DNA of 63,733 nt, counting the filler, from Reclinomonas americana ATCC 50394 (Eukaryota), in the NCBI GenBank assembly GCA_048213135.1. It is 4 parts of 2 records of this genome, joined end to end, with 100 filler letters (N's around TTAATTAATTAA, not from the genome) between each part and the next. Parts side by side here need not be neighbours in the genome. Positions count along the whole stretch, not along the records: positions 1 to 31,610 come from PS015558.1; 3 more parts are not named here. The stretch is one strand, 5' to 3'. Positions within the stretch are counted from its first letter, which is position 1; each line of letters begins with the position of its first letter. The position numbers and the translations under genes are program-made. Of this stretch, positions 3,001 to 61,195 are shown one piece after another. The notes under the pieces are model-generated. The model saw only the letters and a program-made list of their open reading frames with translations. It did not search any database and had not been told where the DNA came from.

Positions 3001-6000
3001 ATAAAAAGAAAGGGCGACATCGCACCCGCGGAATGACCCCCGGCAGCAGCGGGGCCACAGTCAGCAGCGGATAGACGCCGTCGGTGGCAAAGGTGCTGTT
3101 TGCAGCGTTCCAGTACTGACACAACGGAAGCATGGTCGAGTTGATGCGCAGTACACTTGACGAGGTGGTGGTCATGTTGAACACCGCGACCGCGGTCACG
3201 TTGTCTGTCATGTTGATGAGAAACCAATTCTGAAGGTTGGTAGAACGTAATGTTACTCACCAACAAACGACGAGCAGTCTTGCAAGTGGCACAAGGCAAC
3301 GAGACCCAGCGCCCCCTGGAACTGTGTGAGTAGCACGTTCTCCTCCGGTACGCTCATCACAAACGGCTCCGGTAGTCCGGAGACGGTAACAGTGCCCGTG
3401 GGGCTCTGTGCGTTCGTGATCATCGCAGGGGGTTAATGCAACACGCTAGCAGAACGCTCGTGAGAGAATCACACACACATACAGACCACAATGGAGTACG
3501 AGTGACAAGAGGAGGTCGTGAGGTTGGCGGCGGCGGCTTGCGGTGAGACTGAACGCGACGTACACGTGGAGAAGTCGGCCTGCGTGTGCGCGGATGAGCA
3601 AATAAAGATCGTAAATACGTACTGCTTGCTCGTTCAGGCTAAACCTGCACAAAGGCGCGCATGTCTGTTGAGCCGCCAGTCACTTGGGACACCAACGAGT
3701 CCGGCAGCGTGACTGACGTCACATTGGCGGCCTGCACTGACGCCGAGCCACACACAGAGGTCGCTGTGTGCAAGTGTTTCTCCAAATGTCAGTACCAACG
3801 CATCGTGCAGGAACTTGAGTACGTTGCAACAACACAAAACTGCACGACATGGACAGCGAAGTGGCGCTGGCCGCAGTCTCGGTGGCGCGGCCGCCCAATT
3901 CGTACGCCGATATGCGCACCATCGGATTGTCAAGGCGCAGAGAGCCCGACCCCGACGTCTGTGAGAGATCAGTCATGCGAACTTGATTGATGTGGAGAGG
4001 AGACGACGACATGGGCGCACCTGCAGCGCTGACACCATCACATGCTCAGCCACGGTGGCCGCCACGGCCTGCAGAGACGAAACAGCCATTGGATCTGCCG
4101 CCTGACTCAGAAGCAGCTGGTTGACGGCCGAGCCAACAGTCTGCGACGTGAACGGTAATGTGAGACAACAATGACGAGAGAACAAGTGCACATCAAAGCG
4201 GCGACTTTGCGCACCGTCAGCTGACTTTGCGTGGTCTTGTCGGTAATTGCAGCACTCAGCAGTGCCTGTGCCACGTTGGCACGCAGCTGCCGGCCGACCC
4301 ACGATCGGACCGGCAGCAGCGTGGCTCCGACTCGGGAGAATTTGTCGGCGGCATCGTACACATTGGAGAGCACATATTGCACGGCATCTGTCGACGACGA
4401 CGATGCACGAGAGAGCGAATCACTCCACGATAACAAATTACCCTCGACCGATGGATCTGCAACAAACAAGTACCGGGGCAGGCGTGAGCACGGCATTCAG
4501 AAAGCACGCAAGCAAGGCGGACTGCTGCGTACCTGTGTCGACAGATGAAGTGCTGCCGTCCAACAATGCAGACGCGCACACTGAAAGCAGGCCGATTACG
4601 CGAGCGGCTGGTGCTTCGCCCTGCGTTACCGCCTGCAAGTCAGCATCTGCACGGGAGAAACGCGAAGGAAAGAATAAAGCAGTGACGTACTCCCGACACT
4701 GATTCAGCACGCCGAAGTCCATCAGATACCAGAGACGCCAGTTGTGACACAGAAAGATCTGCCAGAGGGCACACCGTGGCCTGACTGGAAACAGTGGAAC
4801 TGTGACATGGAACGCGAAAGAGACCGTGAGTGAGAAAAAGACAGACAGCATGCACATAGCACCACGTCGCTTACTCAACGTGGCGCCAAACTTGTCCTGA
4901 ATTCGGACGCCGACACTCAAGTCACACTTGCTTGTGCCACCCTGCCCGGCAGGCAAGAGAACGCCAGACACACTGCTCAGTGTACTATTGGTGACCGCCA
5001 GTGGAACCTCACGTTGGGTCGTGGGGTCCAGGTAGTAGAAACTGAGAATGGTCAAGCTGTCGTCGTCCCCGAAGCCAGTGGCAGAGAACGTGAATGAGGT
5101 TTGCCAGGCCGTGCCGCTGTCCGGGGATATGCGGAACTGGGCCAGCACTGGCACGTCTGTTGTGGTCGTGTTGCGTCGTGCCAGGGCTGGAAGTCAAAAG
5201 AGTGAGTCAATGTGGTTGACAATTTACGAGTCCTCTTTTCTTGCAAATGAACTGCTCACCAGAGCCTAATACCGGATGGCTGACATGCACCTCCAATGCA
5301 TACACCACATTTTCTTGCAACGAACTGGCTGGAATCGAGAGTGCATAATTGTTGCGCTGCACGTCATCTGCCAAGTCCAAAATCGATACCTCGCCCTCTC
5401 TGTTGCGCAGTCAACGACGCTGGGACACACTCAAGGCACGTGCAAAACAAGCACGCAACGCCAGGTACAAGGCCACCCACGAATAGGAGACAGCCTGAAG
5501 ATCCGTGGCTGATGCACCGCGCACCACGGAGGTGCCAGTGAGCGCATTCTGCGGGTCCACCTTGCTGCTCGCAAAGGGCTGTGGCGAGCAAAAAAAAAAA
5601 CACATAAGTCAGCCTTGGAGAGTGAGGGATGGAGGCAAGGCGAACGAAACTCTGACAGTGACGGTGAGACCGCGCGCCGTACTGCCATCAACAGTGGCCA
5701 TTGATCCCATCGACGCAATCGTACGGAAGCAGCTTGGCGGCCCCAGCGTTCCGGAGCCCCGGCTGTTCACCAACGCTGTTCGCACCCGGTACACGGTGTT
5801 GGCGCGCAGACCGCGCACTGTCGCCGACACCGGAGATGCAAGTTGCGCCGACGTAGAGAGCGCCGAAAGCGATGTAACCGCATCCCAACTGCTGCCATGG
5901 TCCACGGGGACGGCCGACTGACACAAGGCACCATCGCTAACCGCCAGTGGCTCCGCCAGGCGCACAGCTTGCACGCTAATGGCGGTGAGCGGCAGATCGG

Positions 6001-9000
6001 TGGGATCCGGCACCGCTTGCACGGACAGCATCAATCGCGACTCGGTGGCCTGCTGCAGAACAGGTGCCAGCGTGGTACCAATGGGGCCGACAACTGCACC
6101 CACAAACCCACGCAAGAGTGAACATGAGTCACCAAGGCAAGAGAGCGACAAAGAAAAACTATAGCTTGTTCAACAAACCGCCTGCCGCAGCTACAGTTGA
6201 GGAAGCCGACATGGGGCCCTGGCCGTTGCCGTTGACAGCACACACGGTGAAAACGTAGTGGCGCAACGGTAGCAGACTGGGCACGGTTACGGCGGTGTTT
6301 GGCGCAGAGACTGTCCAGCTTCCGCCGCCCACCACAGGCACGCCAGCGTCCGTCACTTCCACGACGCCAATGAGGAAGCTGGTGAGCGTGGAGTTTGGGG
6401 CCAGCGACGGCGGCCACGACACGGTTAGCTGCGCAGTCAGACCGTCCACCCTGTCGACAGAGGGAGCCGGCAGCAGACCGGGAAGGAGAACTGCGCGCAA
6501 CACGGCGGGGGGAATATGAGGAAACAACCGACATGCTTCAATAGCATGGCACCACTGCACGTACGGTACGTGGCGCACACAGGCGTCGTGGCGGTCCAAG
6601 GCCCGTCGCCAGCCGAATTTGTGGCGCGCACTCGCGCCGAGTACTCTGCGTACGGGTCGAGACCAGTGAATGCTGCTCCGGGCAGGGGAGACGCCACATC
6701 GACCGCGGCAACAAGGTCTCCAGTGGCCGAATACAGTTCCACAGAGTACGAAGTCATTGGGCAGCAGTGGTGCGCCGTCGCTGCGGCAAAGGTGATTGTC
6801 AGGGCAGTGCTCGTGCGGCTGCCAACCAGAGTCGGAACACCGGGGGCGGACGGGATGCCGCTGGCTGTGCACAGAAAGCACAATGGGGTTGATTGCGACA
6901 GCGATGATTGCTTGTGCGTGTGCACCACGGGCCACAGACAACGCAACCTGTGGGCAACGTGAAGGTGCGAGTCGCCGTGCCACTGCTGTTGTCGCTTCCC
7001 TGAATTTGAACATCCAACGCCACATCCACGAGACCATTGACACTGGACCGAAGTTCGTTCCCGTTGACAATGATGAGCGACGCCGCGCTCGCTCCCCCGG
7101 TGATGGTGAACGACGCGGTGTCACAGCAATTCGGATCCACAAGCGACAACGTGCCAACGAGGCCATTCAGCACCACCGGCGGCACAAACGTTGTCTCGGA
7201 CAACGTCACGTCTGTCGGCGGCAGTGGCACTGTGTGCGGACCACAGAGTGGGGTTGCATATTGAGAATCAAAGGAGAGTGCGTGTGAGAGAGAGAAGAGA
7301 GCGAGAAAAGAGACACACACCTTCGTTAATGACAAATGAGGCGTCGAATGTGAGCGACGCCGTGTCCGTGGCGCGCACTGTGACATGCAATCCAGTTCCT
7401 GTCTGGTGTGCGTTGCGAAGCACAAGTTGCGATCCAAACACATTGAAGAGTGCCGCGTCAGCACCACCGACTACCGTGAACGTGTGCGTGTCATTCGTAT
7501 TGGCGTCGGTGGCGGTGAGGACTCCAATCGCGACGTTGGTGGTGGCCGTGGGCGGTGCGTACGTGTTACTAGAGAGACTCACAGCCGTGGGTGCGGCCGG
7601 CGCTGTGTGCGTGGGGACAGAGACGAATGAGTCAAAAATCTGCGCGGGGTCGATTCGAAGAAGAAATACACACACCTTCGTTGATGAAGACCAGCTGATC
7701 CAGGAAAGAGCCTCCCGAGTCGGTACTGCGTATGAGCAGCGCCAGCTGACTGCCCACCAGCGACTGAGCAGTTGTCACCACCTGCAGGCCATTGATGGCA
7801 AAGCTGCCGAGCGCGGCGCCGCCGACAATGCTGTACACGAATGTATCACAGCAGTTGCTGTCGGTGGACTGCAGGGTGCCGACAACGGTGCCTTGTGGAG
7901 CCGGAGGCGTGTATTGCGACGGCGACAGAGTGATAAGTGTCGGCGGCACGCTCGCTGCGCACGAATGGAAGGCAACGGGGTGAGCACTCACGGACTCATC
8001 GAACACGTGGCAAGAGATACGTGCCTTCGTTGAGAATCAGCGTCTTGCGGAACACACCGCCACCGGAATCGACGACCTCCACCATCACTTGCAAGTTGTT
8101 GCCCGACGCGACATTGTGCGGGGCCACCACGAGCTGATTGCCGGTGATCTGGAACAATTGTTGCTGCGCGCCGCCCACGATGCTGTACGCAAACGTGTCG
8201 CAACAGTTGGCGTCGACAGCCGCCAAGGTCACCACCACTGCTCCCTGCTGGGCCTGGGGCGTGTACTGACTGGGGCTGAAACTGATGTCAGTCGGTGCGA
8301 CCGCCGCTGTTGGGAAAGCACAGTGAGCGGTCACAAGTCAAACGATGGTGGCAACCAAAGAATAGTGCGACCTTCGGCAAACGTCAGGGATTGATCGAAG
8401 GTGCCGCCAGCGCTGTCTTGCACGCGCACCACCACTTGAATGCCATTGTTGGTGATGGCTCCCTGTGCCGTCGCACGAACGACCAGCTGGTTTCCTTGGA
8501 CTGTGAAACGACTGCCGTAGGCGCCGCCGACAACCGAAAACGTGAATGTCTGGCAGCAGTTGGCGTCGACAGCAGTCAGCGTACACACGGCAGTGCCGAT
8601 GGCAGCCGGTGGCACATAGGTCAGTCTCGACGCAAGAACACCCGTTGGTGGAGAGTTGGCTGCAATACATGGAGCACGAGATCAGCAACATGTTGCGTTG
8701 CGCACGTGCAATGACTCTCAACAACACACCTTCGTCAATCGTGAACGACACCGACACAGTCAGTCCGGTCGAGTCTTGTGCAGTGATCCTTGCAGGCAGG
8801 CCGTTGCCTGTTTGGCCAGTATGCAGGAGGACTAGCGATCTTCCGACGACGGCAAATAGCGGCGTGGAGACGTCCACGGAAAAAGTGTGCGAATCGATCA
8901 CATTGCCGTCCACAGCGGCCAACAAGCCAATCACCGTGCTGGTGCTCGTCGTGGGAGGCACATAGGTGGTCGAGGTCAGTGTGATGTCCGTGGGCGCCAC

Positions 9001-12000
9001 CGGAACTGCAGGTGATTGGGAGAGTAAAGATGAGGCAAAGGACAACGCAGCATACACACACACGAGGGCACGCGCACGTGCGTGCATACGTGCCATCATT
9101 CACTTGCAGCAGCTTGTCAAAGGAGGCTCCGCGCGAGTCTGTGACGCGAATCATTACCATGAGCGCGGTACCGCGTTGTCCGGCGGCCGCCACTCGCAAA
9201 TCACTGTTGAGAATGACAAACAACGATGCGCTGGCGCCGCCCACAATGGTGTAGGTGAACGACTCGCCGCTGTTGACATCGGTCGCACTCAACGTGCCGA
9301 CGAGCACATTCGGCAGCGCCGTCGGCGGCGTGTACGTATTGTTCGACAATGTAATGTCGGTGGGCGCGACATTCACTACGCGCACGAGAGAGGTACGCTG
9401 ATGAGCGGCGACTGGAAAAACAGAAGGAAGGAAAACAAAACGCACCTTCGCTGATGAAGAACTGGCGAGTGAACGATGCGCCAGCCGAATCAGTGGTGCG
9501 GATCAGTACCCCCAGATTGTTTCCGGTGAGCGCTGCCACGCTGGAACGCAGCGTGTTGCCGACAATGGAGAAGAAATTGGGGTTGAGGCCGCTGACCACC
9601 GTATACGTAAATGTCTGGCAGCAGTTTGAGTCTTGCGTCGACAGGGTGCCGATTACAGTGTTGATGGGGCATGGTAGGGAGTAGAGCACTGACGACAGCG
9701 AGATGTCCGATGGAGCAACATTTGCTGAACGGTTCGGGGACCACACGTGAGACACACAAGTAGGGCAAAAGCACATGCATACACGTGTGACACACCTTCA
9801 TCGATCGTCAGCGTTTGTGTGAAGCTCAGTGATGTGCTGTCGGTGACGCGCACTGTCACTGATAGCCCGTTACCGCGTTGTCCTGCAGCCTTGATGACCA
9901 GCAGCGACGACGACACAATGTCAAACAGGGAAGGTGCGTTGACGATGGCGAACTGGAAAGTGTCGTTCACGTTGCCGTCGACGGCACTCAGAATTCCGAC
10001 GATAGAATTGTCACTTGCGGTGGGCGGTATATACGTGTAGGACGACAGAAGGATGCCCGTTGGTGTCGCAGGAGCTGGGCAACGTAAAACCAGCAAATCA
10101 GGTATTGACAAATAAAACCACCATTGACACACGAGCAGCCGTCACGCAACAGTCGGTAATGGTGAATGTCTGATCAACGCTCGCGCCCGCGGCATCGGTA
10201 CTGCGCACAGTAACCACGAAGCTGGCACCCGTCTGACCGTTGTTCACAAACGCCAGCACATTGGCCACAGTCGTGAAAAGTGATGCGTGAAGGCCGCCCA
10301 CCACCGAGTAGGTGAAGCTGTCGACGGCATTCACATCGGCTGTCGACAGCACGCCGACTGCAAACAGAGCGGACGACGTCGGAGGACGGTATGTGGTGGA
10401 CGAAATGGTGATGCCGGTGGGGGCCACGTTGTCTAAAATTGAGAAATAGTACGCAGTCAGAACGAGATGCACCGTGTGCGTGACAGGCTTGACCAAATGC
10501 GTGCGCAACTTTCGTTAATGACAAACGTCTGCGTAAATGTGCCCCCCTTGGCGTTGTCGGTGCGCACCTGCACCTCCAATCCAGTTCCGCGCTGACCAGC
10601 GGTCATCAAGCACAGGGAGGAGTCACTGATGGCAAAGAGGGCGGCATTCTGTCCACCAGTGATGCTGTATGTGTACACCGCGCCGACACCCGTGCTGACA
10701 GTCGTCAGAGTGCCCACGACAGTCATGGCGGCGGCCGTCGGCGGCGTGTATGTTTTTGCGGACAACAGAATGTCCGTTGGCATTGGATTCTCTGCGGATA
10801 GACAAGAACACCATCGTCATCAAAGAGTCTCGTGCACAGCGGGAGAATGACTGACACCACACCTTCATCAATCGTAAACGTCACTTGCACGGTGCCTCGG
10901 GCGCCGTCGTCACTCTGGATAATGACCTCGAGGGAACTTCCCGTCTGCTTGACGTCATTCAACAGGAGACTGGAGCCGGAGATGGAGAAGAGGTCTCCAG
11001 AACCGCCGCCGACAATGGAATAGATGAACTGCTGGCAGCAGTTGCGGTCGATCGTGGTCAACGTGCCCACCACAGTGTTGGTGGTTGCAGTTGGCGAAAC
11101 GTAAGTCTTGGACGACAGCAGAATGCCAGTAGGAATCACATTGGCTGCAACAAGTGAACAGTGAGTCACACAGAGAGGCAATGGAGAGCACAGCAACGGG
11201 GATAGATCGACGCACCTTCGTTGACAGTGAATGACTTGGAGGTGGACAGACCCGACGAATCTGTGGACTGTACAGTGACGCCCAGACCGTCACCAGTTTG
11301 GCCCACGTTGCGCAGCACCAGCATGTTGCCCACGACGGTGAACAGGCTGGCCGGTGCACCAGTGGTGCTCACAATCGAGTACGAGAAGGAGTCCTGCACA
11401 TTGCCGTCCACCGTACTGAGAGCGCCCACCACCGTGTTGGTGGTGAGGGTGGGCGGCGTGTACGTCGATGAGGAGAGCTGAATGTCAGTCGGCGCCACCG
11501 GTACTGCAGGTAAACGCAAGATTTCAAGTCAACACCAATAACACAGACACACAGTTGGCACCCTTGTCCACCCCACCATCGTTGATCACAAAGCGCTTGT
11601 CAAACGCCGCGCCTCCGTTATCCGTAGCCCGAATCACCACCTCCATATTGGTGCCCGTCTGACCAGCAGCGCGGATACGCAGCAGGTTGCCGACGGCCTC
11701 GAAAACGGAGGAAGAGCTCCCACCGGCAATGCTAAAGGTCACCGTGTCGCCCTGATTCGGGTCAGCGGCGCTCAACACACCGACCACGGTGCTGGTCGAT
11801 GATGTTGGCGGCTGGTACGTTGTGCTGGAGAGAGTGATATCAGTCGGTGCGAGGTTGACTGTGCGCACAAAACGAGTCAGCACCAGCACACAAAAGTCAA
11901 AGCGTACACAGTGAGTGATGCACCTCCGGTGAACTGGAGCGTTCGGCTGAGCGGCACATGAAAGCCATCGTCCACCGACACAGTCACTTGCAGTGCACCA

Positions 12001-15000
12001 CCCGCAAGCGGACCACCCTGACTCACTCGCAGCTGGCTGCCGACCACCTGGAATGAGCTGGCGTCCGTGCCGCCCACAATCTGATAGGTGAATGTCTGGC
12101 AACAGTTGGCATCCACCGTCGACAGATTGCAGACGAGGGAGCCAGGTGTGAGACCCAATACAAAGCTCGAGGAATCGCAGTTGAGTTGTGACGGAAGCAC
12201 GTTTTCTGAGCGATGTTGTCAGAAGCGACAAATGCGCAGACAATCTCGTCAACATCATGCACACCTTCGTTGACGGTGAAGGATGTGTCCGCCCACAAGC
12301 CGGTGGAGTCGGTGACCCGCACCACCACCGCTAGCCCATTGCCTGTTTGTCCGCTGTTCAGCAGCGCCAACTTGGCGCCGCCGACAATGGTGAAGAGCGA
12401 CGCCTGCGCGCCTCCGACCACGGTGAACGACGCCGTATCATTCACGTTGCCGTCGACAGCCGACAGCGTGCCGACCACCACATTGGCGGAGGATGTCGGC
12501 GGCGTGTACGAGTTGCGCGACAGAGTGACTCCGGTCGGTGCAACAGGAACTGCGGAGGGCGAGCATCATGAGCACATGCAACATCTTAGGAAGGCACACG
12601 CTGCATCGACCAACCGTCGTTGACGACCAGTGACACGTCGACCGACAGAGACGGTACGCCTGAATCGGAGCTGCGCACAATGACTTGGAGACCGGTGCCT
12701 CGCTGACCGGCTGCAGACAATCGCAGCTGGCCGAGTTGCGAGATGTTGAACAGCGCCGCGTCGGTGCCGCCCACAATCGAATANNNNNNNNNNNNNNNNN
12801 NNNNNNNNNNNNNNNNNNNNNNNNNNNNNNNNNNNNNNNNNNNNNNNNNNNNNNNNNNNNNNNNNNNNNNNNNNNNNNNNNNNNNNNNNNNNNNNNNNNN
12901 NNNNNNNNNNNNNNNNNNNNNNNNNNNNNNNNNNNNNNNNNNNNNNNNNNNNNNNNNNNNNNNNNNNNNNNNNNNNNNNNNNNNNNNNNNNNNNNNNNNN
13001 NNNNNNNNNNNNNNNNNNNNNNNNNNNNNNNNNNNNNNNNNNNNNNNNNNNNNNNNNNNNNNNNNNNNNNNNNNNNNNNNNNNNNNNNNNNNNNNNNNNN
13101 NNNNNNNNNNNNNNNNNNNNNNNNNCAGGTAGACACACACAGGCAGACACACAAACCCTCGTTAATAAGAAATGATGTGGTGAAGGAGGCGCTCATGGAA
13201 TCCGTGGTCCGAACGGTGACTTGTCGCTGGTTGCCGCTGAGGCCGGCAGCAGCCACACGCAGCTGATTCCCAACCAACGTGAAGCTGGCCTGGTCCGTAC
13301 CACCGACAATTGCGTAGGTGAACGTCTGGCAGCAATTGCCGTCCACAGCGGTCAGCGAGCCGACAATGGCGCCCACCGTGGCAGGAACGGCATACGTGGC
13401 AGACGACAGGATGAGACCAGAGGGCGGCACATTGGCTGCCCCCCGACGCACAATGAAATGAGACCGCACGCTCCACAGCTGACCAACAACGACGCACACG
13501 CGCAAAAAAGCTCGCCAGACCTTCGTTAATAGTAAACGACTTGGTGAAGGTGAGGTTGCTGGCGTCTGTCACGCGAATTTGCACGACCAGACCGTCGCCG
13601 GTTTGCCCGGCATTCTTCAGCAACAGCGACGAACCCGACACATTGAAGAGGGCTGCCGACGCGCCACCGACAATCGTGTACGTGTATGATGCCGAGCCTC
13701 CGATCTGCACGGTACTGAGCTGCCCGATGGTGATGTTCGCAGCACTTGATGGCGGCAGGTACGTGTTGGACGACAATAGTATGTCGGTAGGCATCGCCAC
13801 TGGTAGCGGGTGAGGATCACCAATAATGTGATAGCACGTTGTCGCGCACAGCACTCACCAGCAGTAATAACAAATGACTTGGTAAACGTGAGCTGCGACG
13901 AATCCTGCACTTGCACTTGCACGGCAAGATTGGTACCCGACTGGCCAGTCGACCGCAGACACAAAGCATTGCCGATCACGGTAAACAGCGCGGCATCCGC
14001 TCCACCCACCACCGAAAACGTGAATGCATCCGTTGTATCATTGTCCACCGCCGCCAGGATGCCAACTTGCTGATTGTTCGAGGTCGTCGGCGCGGCGTAG
14101 CTTGTGGATGAGAGCGTAATGTCGGTGGGCGGATACACAGCTGTGAAACGATGAGTGGGTCGATGGGTGGTTGCACAATTGCACAGCCGACAGAGGGTAG
14201 GTGGACATACCCTGCAGAGTAAAGGTCTTGGTGTACGTGAAGCCGCCGACGGGGTCATCGGCGCCAATCGTCACCTGCAGCGACGAGCCACTGACGCCGC
14301 CGGCAGCCGAAACCCGCAGCTGATTGCCAGCGACAATGGTGACACTTGCGGCATCGAGCCCTCCCACCACGGAATGTGTCACTACAGCGGGAGTGCAAGC
14401 GGAGGCCGGGATCAAGGTTGTCACGCCCGCGCCAATCTGCCAGCCGACAGACACCCACTTGCTTCCGCTGCTCCACTTGTGTCGCACTCGCAAGTACACC
14501 ACGGTGCCGGCTTGCAACGAGAGCGGACTAGACGCTTGAGTCGCGGACTGTGTCCACTGCTGGTAGCCAGTGGCCGCAGACGTGTACGCTATTTGTGTGG
14601 CGGTGCTGCGCGATCCGGTGGCACTGAATTCAAGCACAGCGTCCTGCACAAAAATAAATGGGTGAGCGCGGCTCACGAGAAGAGAAAAAGAGAGGGGCGC
14701 ACAGCACGCAACATTGCTGGCGGCCACGTAAAACGTGTACGTGGCAGTGGAAGGTATGGTGACAAAGGCTTGGAGGCGAGCGGCGAATGGAAGCGATTCC
14801 GAAGAGGTGCCCTCGAAGCCATTTGTGACCACACGGCACACATTGGGGGTGGTTATCCACGAGAAGCTCGCCACCGTGGAGCCACTGGCATTTTGCCACA
14901 CCTCTTCGTAGACGCCGTTGGAGCCGTTCGCCTGTGAGTGACACCAGTTGGCGTCCGTTGCCGTCAGCGTGCCGAGCAACACGCCAGAGGCTGTCGGCGA

Positions 15001-15671
15001 CACAAAAGTCGAGGTCGACAGTGAAATGTTGCTCGGCGACACATTCGCTGTGGTATTGTACACGCAAAAACGATAAGGGACACATTGTGGAGGAGCAGCG
15101 AGTGATATGCACGGCGCACGAAACTCTCGGCGATCGTAAACACCGACTCGGAGTACAGGCCACCGAGGTCGGTGACGCGCACCGTGACCGACAGGTTCGT
15201 ACCCGAGACGCCGGTATTCGCGATGAGCAACTGAGTGCCGACAATGATGAACTGGCCGGTGGTGCTCTGCGCGGTGATGCTGTACGTCAGCTGGTCATTG
15301 CTGTTTGTGTCGGTTGCCGACAGCGTGCCAACGACAGTGTTGGTCATCGTGGTTGGGGCGGTGTAGAACGTGTTGGAGAGAGCCGGAGCCGTGGGAGCAG
15401 AGTTGGCTGTCCATTACACAGCGATGAGTGGTGACGCGATGGGAAAAGGGGAAGCAGCAAAAACAAGCAACGCACCGACGGTCACGTAGACGGTCTCCAG
15501 GCGGCGGTACGGCGTCGATGGAGCAAAACGCAGGCACACGTCGTAGGCTCCACTTGCGGCTGCAAGAGAGAGAGCGACTCGATGAGATGCTCCACATGAT
15601 GGGTGCACAGAGGGAGAGAGTGGGTAGTACGGGGCAAGGAGTACTTGAAATGCAACTAGGCATGACAAAAG

Positions 15672-15712
<41 letters not shown>

Positions 15713-18323
15713 ACAACGCACTTGACGAGGTATTGGCCAGCAAGATAATGGTCGGATACGTGCAAGCCGACTGAGTGATTGAGAACACGGGCGAGCCACT
15801 GCACGGCGTCGCACTGGCAGCGTATCCTCTGGCCGCGGTCGTGTCGATGGGAACATACAGCAAGCCAACGCCCGTCAACGTAATGGCCACAGAACTCGAG
15901 GCGGCGATGTTGCGCGGCGATATCGCGGTCACCGAGACTGTTGGTGCGAGGCAGGGTGAGCGAGAACGGCGAAGGGAAACAGGTGGGTGAGACGAAAAAG
16001 GCGCAACAAACAGAGAACGGATAGGCCGTCATGTACGCCTTGGTCGATGCCCAGCGAATGCACAGCTGGTAGTTGCCTGCCATTTTTGCATTCCCACAAA
16101 GTGAGTGTGAAAGTGTCGCTGCAGACAGCGTTCTTTCTTGCTGCTCACCTCCAGTGGCGCCCGTGGCCACCACAGACAACACCATGGACGTCGGCAGGGT
16201 GGCAGACGTCACCGAGATGGATATGTTGGGCACGATTCTCGGCGCCGAACAGGCCGTACTGGAGATGATGGCACCATTTGCGTCGCCGGAGATGCTAGTC
16301 ATGCCACAGCCGGTGATAGTGACACTGGTCGTGCTGGTCGCCGCAATCACTCGCGGCTGCACGACATACACAGCGGCTGCAATGCGGGTGAAGGCGAGAA
16401 TGTAAGCACTGCAGTACGCAAGAGAGGATGAGACACGGCATGCCACGTACCCGGATCGGCCAGAATCTGCATGTAGTGCTCTCCCTGTGGTGTGTGGCAG
16501 GCACAGGTGAGTTTAAGCGCGGCGTATTTATGATGGAGGCAGCGAGCACGACGCACCTGTTGTGCGTAGATCAGTGCATTTGAGCCCGGGAACGCGGCAA
16601 CACCAGACGGGTTGGTGACGGTGCCACTGCGCAGTAGGTGCATAATATTGAGTATTCTTGTGATTAGCATCATGTTTAACCAACATGTACCTCGCAGGCG
16701 ACAGTGTGTCGACGTAGTTGATCGCGTATCGCAGGCGTCGAATGGCAGATGCGCCCTGCGAAGCACAGTAGCAGTGAGCGATCGCGGAGAGTCAAACATC
16801 GGACGGTGGCGTGAACGCAACTCTGTCGGCAATAAACACATCGCCACCACTGTTCACATCTACATCGTCCGGCTGTACAAACATGGCCGTCGTCGTGGCC
16901 GGACCGTCCAGGTATCCACTCCCGCTGGTGCCAGCCACAGTCGAGACCGTGGCTAATCAACACAGTGTCATTTTTCGGGTGAGTGTTTGAGAGAAGGAGA
17001 ATACACGCACCAGTGGTGGATGTCAGCAGACGAATGAGATAGTCGCTGCCGGTCGTCAGCAACTGCGTGGTCGACTGGAGGGCGACGGAGATCGGGCCGG
17101 CAAAGGTGGCTGACGTGAAGGAGCCGTCAGCAGAGCCCGAGGAACCGTTGCCGGCATATGTGTACACAGTGGATGACAGGAGGTCGATGCGGCGGATCAC
17201 CCGCGACGCCTGCAGTGGCGGAAGTGAGAAAATTGCAAAAGGAGTTGAGAGAGACAGGAGGAGGGAGAGAAAGGGAGAGAATGATAGGGAAAGAGGGAGG
17301 CGACAGCATATCTACACACACGCACACACACACACTCACCGGATCAGCAATATACAGGTTGCGTGATGTCGAGTCGAGCACCATGCCGCGCGGTGACCTG
17401 CAGAGTTACAGGTCGAGGTTGAGCGGTGAAGGCAAGGAGAGAACCCGAGACGAGCAAAACGCACTCAAAGCTAGCGGAGAGCACGGGGCCGTCAGTGAGA
17501 CCGCCGCCGCCGGTGCCAGCCAGCGTGGTCACCAATCGCGTGTTGAAAGACAGCGCCTTGATTTTACGGTTGTTTGTGTCCGCCACGTAAATCATGCGCA
17601 AGACCTCGTCGAGGGCGATGCCACTTGGATTATTGTAGCGCGCCGAAGTCCAGATGGCATCTGCGGTGTGTAGCGTTAGAAAAACCGTGACAGCACTTTA
17701 TGAGAGCGACGAACGCACTTGTATCGCCGGCTGAACCGTCAGTCGTTCCGGACAGTGAGCCGGTGTATCCTGCCGAACGAGAACAGCGAACTGAGTGAGT
17801 GCAACGATCGCACACAACACTTACGGCGTGAGCGCATGCCACGCACCAAACGTGGTAATAAAGCCGACATAGTTGCGTTGACTNNNNNNNNNNNNNNNNN
17901 NNNNNNNNNNNNNNNNNNNNNNNNNNNNNNNNNNNNNNNNNNNNNNNNNNNNNNNNNNNNNNNNNNNNNNNNNNNNNNNNNNNNNNNNNNNNNNNNNNNN
18001 NNNNNNNNNNNNNNNNNNNNNNNNNNNNNNNNNNNNNNNNNNNNNNNNNNNNNNNNNNNNNNNNNNNNNNNNNNNNNNNNNNNNNNNNNNNNNNNNNNNN
18101 NNNNNNNNNNNNNNNNNNNNNNNNNNNNNNNNNNNNNNNNNNNNNNNNNNNNNNNNNNNNNNNNNNNNNNNNNNNNNNNNNNNNNNNNNNNNNNNNNNNN
18201 NNNNNNNNNNNNNNNNNNNNNNNNNNNNNNNNNNNNNNNNNNNNNNNNNNNNNNNNNNNNNNNNNNNNNNNNNNNNNNNNNNNNNNNNNNNNNNNNNNNN
18301 NNNNNNNNNNNNNNNNNNNNNNN

Positions 18324-43240: not shown

Positions 43241-45887
43241 ATGCGTTGGCTCCTCTCCATCGTGTGCCTCGTGCTCCTCGGCGCAGCCCTTTTGGCTGGT
43301 GAGTTTGCGTGTGTTTGTGACGTCAGTCAGTCTCTCTCTCCCCTCTCTCTCCCCTCTCTTGCGTGCGTGTGAATGCGTGTCTCTGTGTGCGCCTCCTGAG
43401 TGTGCGTGTGTGCGCGACAGTGGATTTGTGTTTGTGACAGTGCTTCTCTGCTCGCCTGAGCGATCTGTCCTCTCTCACTCACCCTTCATTCTCCACAACG
43501 ACGATGTGCAGACGCCCAGACCACTACTTTTGCCCCTGGCAGCTCTAACGCGCCGGAGCAATTCCAGATCATCAAGGCTGTGGGCGAGGATGGTGCGTGC
43601 ATTGCAATCTCTCTCTCTCTGTCTCTCTTTGACGCGTACATTCCTCCTCACTATCTCCCTCTCCCCCTCTCTCTCCTCCCACAGACCTCGACACCTCCTC
43701 CCCAACCGGCTCTCAGTCGGCCATCTGGGTCAACTGGACCAACCCCATCAACCAGGGTAACGCGCCGCCGTCTGAGTTCGGTGTCGACGTGGCCAGCACT
43801 GGTGGCACCACCAAGTACACTGTTGCGTCTGCTTGCCTTCTCCATCCTCTCCCCTCCTCCCCCTCACCCTCTCCTCTCCCCTCCACCAACAGTGCTCGTC
43901 GGTCAACGCCATTGCGGCCAACGGCGGCCCTGCCTCTGGTGGCGCCGGCTGCTACGGCATGATTCTGCGTTACTTTGACCAGACCATCCAGGAGGGCGTG
44001 CAGTACACCATCGCCGTTGCGTCTCTCTTCTCCTCCTTCCCTCCTCCATCCCCGCCACTCATCTCATCTCTTCCCCATCAACAGGCCTACGCTGTCAACG
44101 CGTACGGTGAGGGCGTCCGCACCTCGTCGCAGGTCGTGACAGTGCCGCTCGGTGGCACCCCGCGCCAGCCGACCAACCTGGCCATCAGCTACACGTCGGC
44201 CACCTCGTTCGTGCTGTCGTTCTACCCGCCGATCAAGCTCGGCCAGACTGGTGCCACTGGCTCCGGCAACGTCGCCAACTTCAACCAGCTGCAGACTCCC
44301 TTCTTCCAGGTGCAGATCCGCAGCTCGACTGGCGCCTCGCTGACCGCCTGGACTCCGGTGACCTTCTACACTGAGACAACCAATGGCAACAACGCCAACG
44401 CGGCAGTTGTGCCGTTCTCCTCTGGCCCGTTCTCGCAGCAGTCGTGCGTGGTGTCTGGCACTGGTGCCACCGCCTCGTCCGCCATTCTGCAGCCGAGCAC
44501 CGGCTACGTGGTGCGCGCGCGCGCTGTGGGCCAGTGGGGCTTTGGCCCGTGGAGCACTGTTGCGTTTTTACTGTCGTTCTGTGTTTGTGCATTGTGTGAA
44601 GCAGCTTGCTCACCTCTCTGTGTCTCCCCTACTCGCAGACCGCCACGGCGACCACCCAGGACGGCAAGCAGTCTCCGGGCAAGGTGCTGATCCCGACTGT
44701 TGTGGCTGCGGCCTCGGCTGGCGGCCTCATCTCGTGGACCACTCCTCAGCTGACTGGCGGTGCCATCTCTGGCTGGAAGGTGGAGGCTGCGGCCTCGGCC
44801 AACGGCGGTAACTTGTTTAACGCCTTCTCGACGCCCACGGGTACGCCGGTGTCTGACACGACCTTTGGCCGTGTGTCTGGTGGCCACGTCTTGATCTCGG
44901 CGCTGGCGACGACCCAGAACAGTGCCGCTATCACCACGTACCGCATCCGCGTGACTGCGCAGAACGCCACCGGTGACGGCACGGCCGCTCTCGACATTGC
45001 CGCGCAGCAGACTCTCACCCTCAACGCCGCCGCCAACCCGACTATTGCTGCCCCGACTCTGGTGGCTTGCTGGGCGGTGACTGGTGGCACCACCATCAAC
45101 TGCCTGGCCAACACGACTGCCGCCACGCTTATCGGCAACGGTGGCTTTGGCGCTACTCCGTACACTTTCGGCGCCAATGGCGTCGCTGGCGCCACTCTCG
45201 GCGCTCTGTCTATGGGCCCGACCGACCTCACCGGCACTGTGACCTTCAATGCCACTGCAGCTGGCACTGTGAACCTTGTGGTGACGAACGCCACCAGTGG
45301 AACAGCCAACGGCGCAATCGCGTTCGTCACTTCCCTTGCTGTGACTGCGCCGACCAATGCCGTCTGGTTCAACCGCTCTGGCACCGCCGTGACCGACGTC
45401 AACGGATACGTCACGCTCGGCAACAACTTTGTGGTGATGAACGTTGGCTCACCGACCACTCGTGGTGTGGTGGCGACCGCCGCCACTGGCACTGGCGTTG
45501 GTGGCGTGAATGCCATTACCTTCGCTTACGGCCTTACTGGCGCTGCTGGCATTACTGCTGCCACCGATGCCCAGTACCTTGACGGAAACACCTCGACGAC
45601 TGCGTTGTCTGCTTCCAAGTTTGTCGTGGCAGTCCGCATGAACCTTGCTACCACTGTTGCTGCCACCCAGATCTTTGGTGTGCAGTGGACTCTGGTGAGC
45701 GCTGGCACCGTTGCACCGCTCTTCTGCTGCGGTGCCGCCATTGTTCTTCCGAACACTGTCGGTGGTGTTGCGTCTACTATCGGCATCAATGCTGGTGCCC
45801 TCACCGCCGCCGCCTCCATCACCGTCATCGACATCACCGACACCTCGCTGACGTTCGTCATCACTATGTCCGCTGGCGGTGCACAGT
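43241..45887 (+). CDS. Secreted or surface protein with FN3 domains and an Ala/Gly/Thr-rich region; 3' end truncated by gap
   Basis: Signal peptide MRWLLSIVCLVLLGAALLA. FN3 motifs YTIAAYAVNAYGEG, YVVRARAVGQWGFGPWS and YRIRVTAQNATGDG. Strong C/T-ending codon bias. Confidence 0.85.
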
Positions 45888-46036
45888 NNNNNNNNNNNNN
45901 NNNNNNNNNNNNNNNNNNNNNNNNNNNNNNNTTAATTAATTAANNNNNNNNNNNNNNNNNNNNNNNNNNNNNNNNNNNNNNNNNNNNCAATGAGGAACAG
46001 GGACGAAAGAGAGAGAATGAGATTATGGGGACGCAC

Positions 46037-46662
<626 letters not shown>

Positions 46663-50252: not shown

Positions 50253-53200
50253 TTATTGTCCACCGCCTTGCACATGCTCGACCACGCGCTCCACCAGCTC
50301 GGCCTTCTTGCCTCCACGTGGCAGTTTGTGGTGCGCCAAGTAGACCTTTAGCTGGTCGATGGTCAGCTTGGTTATCTGTGCAGCAAGGAAAGGGAGAGGT
50401 GTTGAATATTCTTCTTCCTTTCTCGGAATATCGATATCGAGGAAGCGTAACTGTGCCGGTCGCCACCATGTTGGCCCAGTTGATGTCGTCGTAGCCGGCG
50501 GCGGCCTTGGCTCGCTTGGAACCGCTGGCGCCATCGGCGTCCTGTGGAGGAGTGTTTCAGCGACGAGTTGTCCTGTTTCTGCTGGTGTAAACGAAACTTC
50601 GTCGGCGCCGCGCTTTGGTGCCGCCTTCTTGGCGCCCATGGTGCGCTGCGGATCGTAGCCGGGACCCATGATGTTAACCTTGAAGTCGTCGATGCGTCGT
50701 CGAACCTCGGCCTGTTGCGGGGAGAGTGAGGGAGAGCGAGCGCCCTGCTAAATGTGTAGCGAGGGTGCACCACGAAACATCAAAGAGACCGGGGTCCGGC
50801 AGGGCCTTGTCCTCGAACGGCGGCTCGTCCTTGCTCTCCAGTGCCAGCGCCTCCAAGTGATTGCAGAACTTGGTCAGAGCTGCGCGAATGATGATGAGTC
50901 GCCCGCCACTGGTTCTGTTCACGATGTATACAAGCTTGCGAAACCTGGGTTCGGGATGCTGACTGACATGTAATCGGCGCAGAGTTTCGTGATTACGCGT
51001 TTCGCGTACGGCACCACAGCCGGATCACAGCGCGGACGCTCCTCCTGTGCATGGCAAGGCGTGTGAGCTGTCACTGTCGTCCGAGAGAACGCCCTCTCCC
51101 CACCGCACGCACCCCATCAAAGGTGAGATCGCGAATGTCGTCGCGGTACGGCAGCGGAATGCAGTGGAAGCCATTCGGCACCACCACCAAGCCATCGCGG
51201 TCGGTGACCTCGGCCTGCGCCATCAGCGCCACAAAGCGCGGCTGTGCACCGTGTCGCGGCACTGCACGGCAAATGGCAACCTGCGGTGGTGGGTGGTCAA
51301 CGAGTTGTCACGTCACGGCGTGACAGACACGAAATCAAACCCTTTGCTGCTCGATCATTTCACGATGCAGGGCCACCAGTGTCGTCGTGCTGCCATGAAT
51401 CCACTGTCGCACGAGCAGTCACACATGTCAGGCAAGCAAAGGAAAAAGAAGGGGTGGACGAAAAAGAGTACACAGAATACCTCCTCATCCGGATAGAGAA
51501 ATGTCGGTGGCTTGAGATTGTGCCACGGCTTGAGTGTGGAGACTGGCTTGAAGCCCATCAGCTTGAATCCTGCGCACACATCCACGACCGCGTGAGAGAC
51601 ACGTGCGAACGACACTGCGAAAGCGCGACTTGGCGAGCGCACCGTGCGGCACGTCGCCCAGCTTGATGCTGTCGAGTTCCTGCTTTGCAAAGTACACCTC
51701 GTCGCTTCCAAACTCGTGTGCATACGAAAAATCGCTCGGCAGCACGTAGGATGTGGTTTCTGTGCACGCAAAAAGGAGACAGTCAAGCATCTGCAGACAC
51801 TCCTTCTCCCCCTACTTCTTCACACACCAACGTCGGTGTACGTGCGCTCCAATCGAACCGACTTGTTGGTGCCCTTCTGGATCCACATGGGTGTTGGCTT
51901 CTTGGCCGGCATCACCATGTGGTAACTGCGCACGCAGGCAGAGGCACGTTGTGTCACGCATTTACTGCACAAGAGCGACACGCACAGCACGCAACACTCG
52001 CAGGCCAAGCTGGAAGCCCTCCTCGCCAATGGCCAGACTCACTCTGCCACTCGTCCGCTTCTTGCCGGCTCGATAGCGCACCACACTCTCCTCTTCCTCC
52101 AGCTGCAAGACAGAACACGTGAGACGACGCTTCTCCTCATCAAGACACTCACAGCCACACACACCGTGTCGCCAACATCACGAATGCCACACACGTCGCC
52201 GAGGAACATGGACGATGCATTGGCCTTGTTCACCACCGCCTATTATGCAAACGCGCGTAGTTGTCAGCAGCAGCAATCAATCACGACGACGACGAGTGCG
52301 TAAAAACGCACCTGCCAAAACGTCGAGCGATCGATCTTGACGCCCCGATGCCGCACCGCCAACACGTCAATGGTGACGCGGCTGTCGGCCAGGTTCTGCA
52401 GACACAACGGTCAACATGGGCCGAGAGGGAGAGAGGGAGACAGGGAGAGAGAGAGAGGGAGAGAGGGAGAGGGAAGAGGGGAAGAGAGTGAGAGATACAG
52501 TGAGGAAGAGAGGAAGTGGGAGAGAGAGAGAGAAAGGGAGACTGAGAGAGAGAAGGAGAGACGCAGAGAGGAAGAGGGTGAGGTGGACGAGGGCCGGGAA
52601 GAGAAGAGATAGCCTCAGACAGAGCACGAGGAAGAGAGAGACAGCACACACTCAAGTCTGTCTCTCTTGTGCATTCTCATGCTCTCTTCCCTTCCCCATT
52701 TGTTATCTCTCAGCAGACCTGCACACGCTCCAGCGTCAGCGTCAGCACACTGGCATCGCCCGGCTCCTCTTCGTTGGTGCACACAAAAATGCGTCGCGTG
52801 CCGATCTTGGCCGTTCTGCAAAGCATCGCGAATGAGCGACACATAACCGGCAGCCTCCATCCATCCAACCACCACAACAATAACACAACTGCTCATTGAA
52901 GAGATACGACGCCGTCCACAGCGCCTGATGCAGCGGATACGGCGTGCGGGCCGTGTACTTGCCAATCGTGGCCTCAAACGAGTCGGCGGCCACGGCATGC
53001 GCATTCTCCGAGAACTCAAGCAGTGTGCGGATGCGCCCGACACTCGGCTCCTCAAACGGCATGTGCACAAAGCTGTGCTTGAAGTCGTACGGAGACCGAC
53101 TCTCGCGCTGGCACTCGCGGAGTGAGCTCGAGAATGCAATAGAGAGAGAGAGAGAGAGAGAGAGAGAGGCACATACCGTTGCATAATAGACTACGCCCAG

Positions 53201-55214: not shown

Positions 55215-55252
<38 letters not shown>

Positions 55253-58200: not shown

Positions 58201-61095
58201 GTGCAAGATCACTCTCGGCAAGACCACCTTTGTGGCCTACGAGCTGACCGTGTCGGCAGACGTCGGTGTGCCGCTGTTGGAGTTCTCGCACACGGAGGTG
58301 CCGTTCTCTTTCTCGTATGCACCCGACCAGGAGGAGAATACTCTGGCGCAGCCGCTGACGCTGAAGAACGTGTCTGCGCTGCCGCTGACGTTCACATTGC
58401 GACCGCCTGCGCCGTTTATTGTGGACCAGACGCACCTGTCGCTGCAGCCGCAGCAGTCGGCCAGTGTCAGTGTGGAGATGGATCCGACCTACCGAGGCGA
58501 TCGTGTGTCCCACAAGATTCGCAACAAGCTGCTCATCACCTACGCGGACCACCCGCAGCGCGATGGTGTGACACTGACGGCCGACATCAACTTCCCCAAC
58601 TTGCAGCTGGAGACCGATGTCGTCGACTTTGGCTGCATTGTCAATCAGGGCGAGAAGTCGGCCGTGCTCAACATGACGAATGTCAGCCGTCTGCCTGTCT
58701 CATACCGCTGGGTGCTGCAACGCGACATTCCCGAGGGTCGCCAAGTTGATGGTGAGTAATGTGATGGATTTGTTCTCTTCCTCTCGCGACTCATGTTTTG
58801 CGTCCTTTCAGCTGCCATGCTCGACGGCATCAGCAACTATTTTGACATTCTGCCCCTGCACAACGTGCTGCAGCCGGGCCAATCGGAACAAACGGAGATT
58901 CTGTTCAGCGGTCGTCCCAACAGCAAGCAGACCGTCAAGGCCGTGTGCGAGGTGGACGGCGGCCCCTCGTACGTGGTCTCTCTGTCGGGCTCGACGGCGG
59001 CCATGTCGTTCCGTGTGGAGAACCAGGAACTCGATTTTGGAGAGATCCAGTTCGACCGCCCCACCGACGCCGAGGTGGTACTGGTCAACACCAGCGCCGT
59101 CCCGTTCACCTACACTGTCGATCTCAGTGGCATCTCTGTGCCGGGACGGATCACAGTGCGCCCCGACAATGGTGTGTGTCTCTCTGCTGTGCGTGTGTGT
59201 GGGCCAGAAAGTGTGCGCGCCCTCACTCATATCTCGTGTGCAGCGCGTGTCGATGCCAACGCTTCGCGCCGTCTGTCTGTCAAGTTCGTGCCGTACATCC
59301 CCGACGTGGTGGTCGAGCGCTTCTACATCCAGGTGGCGCACTTTGATCCGGTGCCCATCACGATTCGCTGCATCGGCACCTTCCCGCGTGTGATGATTAC
59401 GCTGCCGCTCAAGTCGGATGAGATGAGCGGCTTCTTGCAGCGTGCCGCTGATCTGGTCTCGCGTGGCGAAACTCCGCTGCCGGTGGCCGACGCGGCTCTG
59501 GCGCACCTTGTGCGTCGTACGCAGAACCCACCGTCGCGCCAGGCCACTTCCACGGGACCGACTCCAACGCAGAGTGTGGTGGGAGTCCAGCGTGCTCAGA
59601 GGTGCGTGCGCCGCGCGAGTGCTTCCCTCATTCGTCACAATTACTTATCTTCGTGCGCCTGCCGTTCAGCCCGTCTGCACTCGGCGCCGGCTCCATGATG
59701 ATGAAGACCCCGCAGCAAGTGGAGATTGAGGCCGAAGCAGGTATGCAGGCTGACAAAGAAAGCAATGTGCGCGTGCGTGCGTGTCTGTCTCCTCACCCTC
59801 CTGTCTGTGCTGTGTCACGCCACAGAGCGCCTTGCGCTTGTCGACCTCCTCATGAACACTCCGGTGTCGTCCACCACCATGGGCGCGACAGCAGCCGCGT
59901 CACGACGGACAACGGCCGTCGCCACCGCGACTGCTGCGGGCGCGAACCGTCCGAACACGGCCACTGGATGTGCGTGTGTGATTCGCGTCTCTCCCTCTGT
60001 TTGTCTGAGTTTCTCACACCACTCATTGACTCGTGCAGTGATTCAACTGTCGACGGAGCGCCTGTCGCTGAGTACCTACGTTTGCGACTTTGGCCATGTG
60101 GTCCGCGGCTCGGTGAAGCGCAAGGCATTCCGCATCGTCAACACGGGCTACTCGCAAGTGTCGCTCAACTTTGACAAGCGCGCCATGCTGAACACTGGCT
60201 TCTCCATGGAGCCCGATAAGTTTGGCCGCATTCCCGGTGCCCCGAACAACGAAGCCGTGGAGGTGGCGCTGACGTTCCAGTCCAAGGTACTGCTGCGCGT
60301 ATGATTGTGCGACGACGGGTACAGTGAGACTCACACGGCGCACACGCTGCGCACAGAGTATTCCCGAGGGTCCACTGGAGCGTGTGGTGCCGGTGCACAT
60401 CAAGGGCTCGCCGAATGTGAATCTGCTGCTGCGCGCCAACATTGTGATTCCCGACGTGAACCTGTCCACCAGTCGACTGGACTTTGACACGTTGCGTCTG
60501 CTGTTGCTATTGTCGTTCGATGTCTGTTGCTTACGAGGATGGGTGTTGGGTTACGAATGCAGCGTTCTGTGTGGCCAGACAAAGACCATGGTGGTGCAGT
60601 TGCACAATGCCAAGAAGTTGCCGTGCGAGTGGGCCTTCAAGCCAAGCACCGAGGCGCGCAGCGACGAGTCACGCTTCCAGTGCGTGCCGTCGGAGGGCAC
60701 GCTAATGCCCGACGAGCGCATCAATGTGGCAGTCACCTTCGTGCCGAACAAGGAGCGCACCTTCCAGGCCAAGCTCACCATCAAGTGCAACCAGAGCTCC
60801 GCCAGCCACGCGATTCAGTGCCGTGGTGTCGGCGAGGAACTGCACATGGCAATCGAGCCGCCGCAGATCTCCTTCCCGCCGACCATGCCGTTCAAGGGCG
60901 AGGACTTCTTCTTCCAGCTGCAGAACCACAGCAATGTGCCAGTGGAGGTGTACTCGCTGGACTTTGATCAGCAGTACATGATCGAGGAGGAGGTGCTGCG
61001 CTCAAATGAGGCGCTGAAAACGGGACCGCTGCTTCTGCCGCCACGTCAACCGGGCGATGTGCTGCCGCAGCATCTGGTTGATGAGCACCACGAAG
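53949..61095 (+). CDS. HYDIN: HYDIN central-pair protein (ASH/MSP repeats), 5' part, truncated at linker
   Basis: VAPGMEVRFAVSFTPE, CITEREKFVVPV, LPDEIDFGACPVKY, AYCDVSGREMRLPLEL, YVCDFGHVVRG, EVYSLDFDQQYMIEEEVLR. Confidence 0.95.
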
Positions 61096-61195
61096 NNNNN
61101 NNNNNNNNNNNNNNNNNNNNNNNNNNNNNNNNNNNNNNNTTAATTAATTAANNNNNNNNNNNNNNNNNNNNNNNNNNNNNNNNNNNNNNNNNNNN

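Follow-up and report, generated by a model that had tools for sequence, protein, structure and literature searches.

A candidate GTTNCGY class of splice donors, offset by one base from the canonical intronic block, in a Reclinomonas americana genome

Does a splice donor change its class with the last base of the exon that precedes it? The question is raised by a large gene, carried on the minus strand of a 63,733-nucleotide (nt) stretch of DNA from the intron-dense eukaryote Reclinomonas americana ATCC 50394 (GenBank assembly GCA_048213135.1; ∼58% GC), in which tandem cadherin-like repeat exons are each followed by an intron at the same position. The whole stretch, including the filler between its joined parts, is referred to here as the window. 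The initial annotation of the gene proposed that repeat copies ending in G use unshifted donors, that the three copies ending in T or A use a shifted form, and that the two forms had been interconverted repeatedly in compensation for the base at exon position -1. On balance, our analysis favors two kinds of GT donor, namely, G|GT-R-Y-G-T, with a loose intron side, and a rigid GT-T-N-C-G-Y, which would differ in register by one nucleotide. We refer to donors of the form GTT-N-C-G-Y as S donors. The S class is very probably real and indifferent to the -1 base, and the resulting rule is asymmetric: canonical donors need a G at -1 and S donors are indifferent to it, so that there is no strict switch.

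Donors at the homologous position of the repeat array

The array lies at 6948..15406 (-) and comprises ∼22 tandem cadherin-like repeat exons (R01 to R22), in which the repeat module of ∼93 residues starts with …(N/P)-V-A-P-T-D… and finishes with …F-x-I-N-E. The 20 complete repeat exons are 276 to 288 nt each, every length is divisible by 3, and the exons are symmetric (phase 1-1). A PA14-like insert interrupts R02, and an N gap at 12784-13125 breaks R06. The introns after the repeats are in phase 1, are 59 to 91 nt long, and end in AG; translation of 15 repeat exons in spliced form yielded no stops, and the frame is open over all modeled junctions. The phase-1 intron that had been annotated after each duplicated repeat is therefore present, with frame and exon lengths in agreement. 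Junctions throughout are models from sequence, frame, and repeat spacing, and the donor positions 10150, 10509, and 15124 are plus-strand coordinates of the G of GT with which the intron begins, the gene itself being on the minus strand.

Canonical GT donors occupy 16 of the 22 homologous positions, all of them after G. Another four donors read GTT[GT]CG, three after a non-G base and one after G, and the last two are GC donors, both after G (donor type versus -1 base, Fisher p = 0.0026). The donors quoted in the initial annotation for copies ending in G (GAAG|GTGTGT, GAAG|GTGCGT, GCTG|GTGAGT, and CAGG|GTATGT) are correct, and several of the donors after G are weak matches (GTCGCA, GTCTGG, GTGGGG, and GTGCAT). 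Also as quoted, the three copies ending in T or A begin their introns with GTTGCG or GTTTCG. These three flagged introns are located after R12 (10433..10509 [-], 77 nt, GAAA|GTTGCGCA, acceptor TTTTAG), after R13 (10075..10150 [-], 76 nt, GACT|GTTGCGTG, acceptor GCCCAG), and after R01 (15048..15124 [-], 77 nt, GAGA|GTTTCGTG, acceptor CCACAG). The proposal that copies ending in G are unshifted holds for the 16 canonical donors but not for the intron after R22, the last repeat (6865..6947 [-], 83 nt, phase 1), which lies at the homologous position just outside the range that the proposal covered and whose donor is G|GTTGCGTT. This donor may represent an intermediate state between the two types. 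The two candidate GC donors, after R16 (9006..9093 [-]) and R19 (7955..8024 [-]), are both G|GCACGTAT, the 8-mer being identical in the two copies. The use of GC is uncertain in both cases, with in-phase GT alternatives at +30 and +36 for 9093 and, for 8024, an in-phase GT at +18 that precedes an in-frame stop at +27.

The homologous position had been taken to fix the cut site independently of frame. It does so by assumption only, since in-phase GT alternatives are present at 10150 (C|GTGTGTCA at +18, whose use would place six more residues in the linker) and at 15124 (C|GTGCATAT at +12). At 10509, the quoted GT is the sole in-phase GT before the acceptor zone, the other candidates being GC only. 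We favor the quoted cut sites because of the homologous spacing (…INE | x-N-V-A-P-T-D): the linker spacing is kept at the S junctions, and its length, constant in the other repeats, would be extended by the alternative donors. A reading of 15124 as a GC donor located 3 nt downstream was rejected, as there is no GC at +3.

To count the switches, the 20 complete repeats were placed on a maximum-likelihood tree, in which 12 of the 17 inner branches are unsupported and the end branches amount to ∼0.5 changes per column. The tree puts the four S copies apart, and its well-supported branches force one change only. In approximately unbiased (AU) tests, a clade of the adjacent R12 and R13 was not rejected (p = 0.138), a clade of the three flagged copies gave a borderline result (p = 0.045), and a clade of all four S copies gave p = 0.018. 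A single recent clade of the three flagged copies, the outcome that would reduce them to one event, is excluded by the depth of their divergence together with their unrelated intron bodies. Repeated compensatory interconversion within the array is nevertheless weakly supported, the events being uncountable on a tree with so many unsupported inner branches and with R12 and R13 still admissible as a clade.

The GTTNCGY motif and the last exon base

S donors were found well beyond the homologous position. They begin 8 of the 37 introns in a hand-curated set for the cadherin-like gene (minus strand, 5259-17464), which was drawn up by eye with frames and domain-like motifs as guides, and 17 of the 58 introns in an automated dynamic-programming parse, whose donor score takes no account of exon bases. 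When GTT[GT]CG was listed over the whole window, many of the sites were followed by a short pyrimidine-rich intron and a CAG acceptor, and the S motif was seen in at least four other genes. All of the listed S introns start with GT and end with AG. Thus, the three flagged donors are ordinary members of the S class, not local oddities, and the presence of S donors at many nonhomologous introns indicates that this donor type arises repeatedly in the genome.

The motif requirements were estimated with a local intron test, which combines a coding score with two demands, namely, that the spliced frame be open for 25 codons on each side and that an acceptor be present at 48 to 130 nt. The test passes 19 of 21 known introns, an earlier, stricter form having been relaxed because it passed too few. 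GTTNCGY sites pass in 17 of 79 cases, compared to 270 of 5,628 background GT sites (p = 2.5e-7), and the motif is 5.4-fold enriched at intron-like contexts. Pass rates for single-position variants are 0/40 with a purine at +7, 1/65 with a non-G base at +6, 5/63 with a non-C base at +5 (GTTN[AGT]GT), and 12/289 with a non-T base at +3. The pass rate of the S motif is equal after G (3/12) and after non-G (14/67), whereas canonical GTRNGT passes at 21/112 sites after G versus 15/436 after non-G (p = 2.4e-7). A depletion of G ahead of the S motif was also considered and rejected (12/79 versus the 20.9% expected from dinucleotides; p = 0.27).

Among 27 canonical donors, G is present at +3 in 19, C or U at +4 in 20 (10 and 10), G at +5 in 24, and U at +6 in 20. 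The 17 S donors have T (14/17) or C (3/17) at +7, which mirrors the canonical preference for T at +6. Relative to the canonical +5 G and +6 T, the invariant G and Y of the S motif are therefore displaced downstream by one base, which bears out the description as a shifted form, the canonical intronic block having slid one position into the intron (GT-T-NCGY versus GT-RYGT). The S introns have no common sequence beyond these signals and thus are not copies of a mobile intron: an "introner" family was rejected on the basis of mean similarity scores of -0.118 for S-S pairs (91 pairs) versus -0.072 for N-N pairs (406 pairs), and the score between the introns after R12 and R13 is -0.121.

Donor class is strongly associated with the last exon base, both in the gene and in the window. 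In the hand-curated set of 37 introns, canonical GT donors follow G in 25 cases and another base in 2, S donors follow G in 1 case and another base in 7 (Fisher p = 4e-5), and the 2 further donors are GC, both after G. The corresponding counts in the parse of 58 introns are 29 G and 10 non-G for canonical donors and 1 G and 16 non-G for S donors (Fisher p = 2.9e-6), and with the core of the cadherin-like gene removed, they are 12 and 2 versus 0 and 9 (p = 6.7e-5). These counts come from one parse only; stricter de novo parses fragmented the genes outside the repeat proteins, and a parse without a donor model extended exons into introns. The claim that donor class switches with the -1 base thus stands as an association, but not as a strict switch. 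Perfect canonical donors are found after non-G bases (A|GTGCGT at 17464 and 15721 [-] and T|GTGCGT at +59970), and a second gene has an S donor after G (G|GTTTCGCA at 50944), as does the cadherin-like gene at 6947. Because canonical donors need a G at -1, exons that finish in A, C, or T mostly have an S donor or, alternatively, a perfect GTGCGT.

Further S introns and their host genes

Four more S introns, and perhaps a fifth, were located in the cadherin-like gene, all on the minus strand. Within the PA14-like insert of R02, a putative intron at 14644..14712 (69 nt, phase 0) has the donor T|GTTGCGTG, a CT-rich body, and the acceptor TTTTTGTGCAG. Its removal is not forced, as the frame reads through; a weak PA14 Pfam alignment ends with the residue that immediately precedes the 14712 donor. 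Upstream of the array, the intron at 15938..16007 (70 nt, phase 1, T|GTTGCGCC) has a length not divisible by 3, so the frame requires its removal, and the lone in-phase GT alternative at 16007 would give a 43-nt intron. The intron at 16756..16821 (66 nt, phase 0) has the donor A|GTTGCGTT, and its removal joins …DVFIADR to GASAIRRLRY…, which we take to be an NHL-type repeat pattern; these short exons have no Pfam match. Downstream of the array are the introns at 5400..5459 (60 nt, phase 2, C|GTTGCGTG) and 5579..5650 (72 nt, A|GTTTCGTT), the latter being ambiguous with T|GTCAGAGT 6 nt upstream and excluded from the hand-curated count.

Outside the cadherin-like gene, a plus-strand repeat protein has three S introns, at 43822..43892 (71 nt, T|GTTGCGTC), 44016-44084 (69 nt, C|GTTGCGTC), and 44559..44638 (80 nt, T|GTTGCGTT). 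The first of these has no in-phase GT alternative and a length not divisible by 3, and its flanking exons are open when spliced. Four successive GTT[TA]CG donors are found at the 3′ end of a Ku70-like gene (50376..50944 [-]), which encodes an SAP domain (Pfam SAP, E = 3.8e-10; top solved-structure match 1jjr, "thyroid autoantigen," E = 0.0055). Besides G|GTTTCGCA at 50944, these are T|GTTTCGTG (50778), A|GTTTCGTT (50597), and A|GTTACGCT (50451), and all have T or A, not G, at +4. The introns at 50778 and 50597 are 67 and 56 nt long, with no in-phase GT alternative. The S donors at +43822, -50778, and -50597 are thus the only in-phase GT of introns with lengths not divisible by 3, and the frame needs them. 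In a CFAP65-like gene, the intron at 60491..60562 (+) (72 nt, phase 2, C|GTTGCGTC) joins …LDFDT to VLCGQTKTMVV… when removed, whereas a read-through parse gives a low-complexity insert.

The CFAP65-like ciliary gene covers 54500-61100 (+) and matches the HYDIN/CFA65 Ig-like and CFAP65 Ig domains of Pfam. One of its exons has three unnamed protein relatives, the top one at 38% identity, none of the returned proteins was from the host itself, and the lineage seems poorly sampled; an earlier query with a CFAP65 open reading frame found no protein match at E ≤ 1e-10. A fragment of an actin-family gene lies between N gaps at 46029-46660 (-), with a Pfam Actin match in one exon (E = 3.2e-34) and one canonical intron, G|GTGTGTGT. 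The N runs at 31611-31710, 45888-45987, and 61096-61195 are each made up of paired 44-N runs with 12 bases between them. The 12 bases at 31655-31666 are TTAATTAATTAA, a six-frame stop linker. The paired runs seem to be spacers from the assembly and not biology.

The closest relatives of a repeat exon of the cadherin-like gene are "cadherin domain-containing" proteins of planctomycetes (Rhodopirellula and relatives), at 39 to 46% identity, and these relatives carry precomputed PF00028 annotations. The protein search with the repeat exon returned bacterial relatives only, of up to 2,000 amino acids. The Pfam Cadherin family (PF00028) scored 17.9 bits versus a cut-off of 28.8 in one of five plain repeat exons and had no match in the other four. 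Given a score under the cut-off and relatives with PF00028, the repeats are named "cadherin-like" only. The presence of planctomycete-like repeat modules in an intron-bearing eukaryotic gene could be the result of an old transfer or of a shared bacterial-type module. The insert in R02 (14211-15047 [-]) is ∼180 residues long, and in Pfam its exon matches only PA14 and StcE, both weakly (PA14-like match, E = 0.00088, under the cut-off); the second half of the insert has no Pfam match. The same gene has two longer introns (15600-15721 and 17260-17340 [-]) of ∼130 to 160 nt with (CT)n or (GT)n microsatellites, and the GT repeat at 17339 offers several in-phase donor choices.

Recognition register, alternatives, and known systems

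How might a donor dispense with the last exon base? Judging from the geometry of the motif, the S class may work through a recognition register that is offset by one nucleotide. In this mechanism, an extra T after GT would move the canonical R-Y-G-T block one base downstream, and the small nuclear RNAs (snRNAs) that read the block (U1 at first and, perhaps, the U6 ACAGA box at a later step) would engage one nucleotide offset, either by a shift or by a bulged +3 U, while the cut would still be set by the GU dinucleotide. The intron +1 G would then fill the slot held by the -1 G in canonical sites, which would leave the -1 base free in S donors. Insertion of a T into a donor of the G|GTGCGT type would yield the state of the 6947 donor, G|GTTGCGT, and from then on the -1 base could drift.

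Several observations weigh against the proposed offset or against the data behind it. U1 pairing was computed with the canonical U1 5′ end, AUACUUACCUG, from which the host U1 may differ; on this basis, the mean duplex energy is -1.7 kcal/mol for 8 S donors versus -6.7 kcal/mol for 27 canonical donors, and -1.1 kcal/mol for 17 S donors versus -2.5 kcal/mol for ∼400 random GT sites. S donors are poorly complementary to U1 in the canonical register, where +5 and +6 are C and G. A shifted duplex drawn by eye pairs +1 G, +3 U, +4 G (as a wobble), +6 G, and +7 U, but the nearest-neighbor minimum-energy duplexes take neither this register nor the bulged one. None of 16 variants of U1 positions 5 and 6 separates S donors from random GT sites by more than 1.2 kcal/mol. 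The S motif requires C at +5 while canonical donors have C and T equally at +4, which is narrower than a pure shift predicts. As for the counts, the hand-curated set was assembled by eye, at least 5 of the 10 "canonical, non-G" calls of the parse are misplaced relative to homologous or curated sites (9063, 11552, 13499, 17333, and 60522), and every junction rests on a model.

In view of the weak U1 duplexes, an offset register would depend either on snRNAs with an unusual pairing surface in this organism or on assistance from U6, U5, or proteins, and the canonical preference for C or U over A at +4 points in that direction. Canonical donors here favor G at +3 and C or T at +4, not the A/A that pairs best with textbook U1. 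Within the window, no snRNA gene was found with Rfam at the gathering threshold, and no tRNA was found with ARAGORN.

The strongest competing explanation, which we still regard as unlikely, is 5′ splice-site compensation between two classes with no shift of register. S donors would be anchored in the intron, by U6 or proteins, and canonical donors in the exon, through the -1 G and U5 loop 1, so that GTTNCGY would be a different intronic motif and not a displaced block. The anticorrelation between a -1 G and a strong intron motif is the classical 5′/3′ compensation (seesaw linkage) described in PMC11732430. The poor pairing of S donors with canonical U1, whatever the register, and the need for C at +5, which a simple shift does not predict, also favor this explanation. 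However, the S motif is unlike GURAG, and its invariant G and Y are displaced from the canonical +5 G and +6 T by exactly one base in the downstream direction. Moreover, GTGCGT tolerates non-G bases (17464, 15721, and +59970), and an intron-anchored class in the canonical register is therefore already present beside the S donors.

The S class could instead be recognized by a dedicated snRNA variant, such as a U1 with a 5′ end complementary to GUUGCGU, which would give the organism two U1 specificities. Going by the motifs, 5′ ends with full complementarity to GUUGCGU and to GGUGCGU would differ at one base; the S share of about a fifth to a third of modeled introns (8/37 and 17/58) seems high for a poor duplex, and the canonical preference for C or T over A at +4 hints at a nontextbook U1 or U6 pairing surface. 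Yet the Rfam search of the window recovered no snRNA gene, and a single perfectly complementary variant would not suit all S donors, some of which have T or A at +4 (GTTTCG and GTTACG). We consider such a variant quite unlikely.

It is improbable that the class is an artifact of wrong gene models, in which the real donor would be a GC at +3 (GTT|GCG…) or the next in-phase GT. The junctions were, after all, modeled from sequence alone; in-phase alternatives do exist at 10150 (+18) and 15124 (+12), GTTGCG donors have a GC at +3, and GC donors are possibly used at 9093 and 8024. Against this, donors of the GTTTCG and GTTACG forms lack a GC at +3, no other in-phase GT is present at 10509, +43822, -50778, or -50597, the enrichment at intron-like contexts is specific to the S motif and not seen for its one-base variants, and the alternative donors would lengthen a linker that is constant in other repeats. 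Chance, suggested by a small sample in which 3 of 21 introns, picked by eye, combine a non-G exon end with GTT, is a negligible explanation in the face of the Fisher tests at homologous positions (0.0026), in the curated set (4e-5), in the blind parse (2.9e-6), and outside the gene core (6.7e-5) and of the recurrence of the motif in at least four other genes.

Returning to the offset register, its broadest form holds that roughly a quarter of the introns are spliced via a GUUNCGY class that can do without a G at the exon end and has its recognition block offset, relative to the cut, by one nucleotide. We advance this only tentatively. If true, it would call for an obligatory noncanonical snRNA register at genome scale or for a second U1 or U6 specificity, and the paralogous repeat introns would be an in-gene series of the states G|GTGCGT, G|GTTGCGT, and H|GTTGCGT.

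The nearest precedents are noncanonical U1 registers in human cells. Shifted and +2/+3-bulged U1 registers have been validated there with suppressor U1, and the validated noncanonical registers together account for 1.5% of 201,541 human sites, with 68 (+2/+3) and 51 (+3) predicted bulge sites, according to Tan et al. 2016 (PMC4856993), who also describe the shifted (+1) register of Roca and Krainer 2009 and tabulate the bulged +2/+3 register of Roca et al. 2012. As that register is described there, S donors resemble the shifted (+1) register in that the consensus block comes one base late, the +1 G takes the -1 slot, and the cut is at GU; unlike the human shifted register, which is rare, they make up about a fifth to a third of modeled introns, and their predicted duplex with canonical U1 is weak. 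The bulged register is also similar, since a canonical helix from which one U bulges out fits GU-U-RNGU and is, for these sequences, indistinguishable from the shifted drawing. However, a bulge predicts that a -1 G helps, whereas a G at that position makes the S motif no more intron-like.

Two 5′ splice-site classes, one with NN//GURAG and one with AG//GUNNN, are distinguished by Parker, Fica, and Simpson 2025 (PMC11732430). As in that scheme, an exon-leaning class and a strict-intron class are anticorrelated here. Unlike NN//GURAG, the strict motif is GUUNCGY, with the conserved G and Y one base further into the intron, and unlike the two-class consensus, the canonical class prefers C or U at +4, not A.

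S donors also resemble GC-AG introns, a minority donor type needing a strong flanking consensus and represented in the array by the two candidate G|GCACGTAT donors, but S donors begin with GT, and the GC at +3 is missing from the GTTTCG and GTTACG members. U12-type introns, too, form a second class, and their rigid 5′ motif does not depend on the exon end. They have the 5′ motif /RTATCCTT, which none of the S donors carries, and the branch site TCCTTRAY; neither was seen in the S-intron sequences inspected, where no dedicated motif search was made. Unlike U12-type introns, S introns have pyrimidine-rich 3′ ends and CAG acceptors. A literature search that did not cover the host organism's own literature found no report of such a donor type.

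It is already known that donors can dispense with a fixed exon end at the price of a strict intron side, and offset registers are known as rare cases. This genome differs in having a rigid and discrete motif, displaced by one base, at about a fifth to a third of modeled introns. A gene finder that has learned only one donor matrix will place S junctions wrongly, as the parses used here did. Noncanonical U1 registers have so far been mostly rare human exceptions, and the two known classes are overlapping halves of one consensus. If a large share of the introns uses the offset motif, the organism would offer a natural system for studying the division of labor among U1, U5, and U6 at the cut and the mobility of the register.

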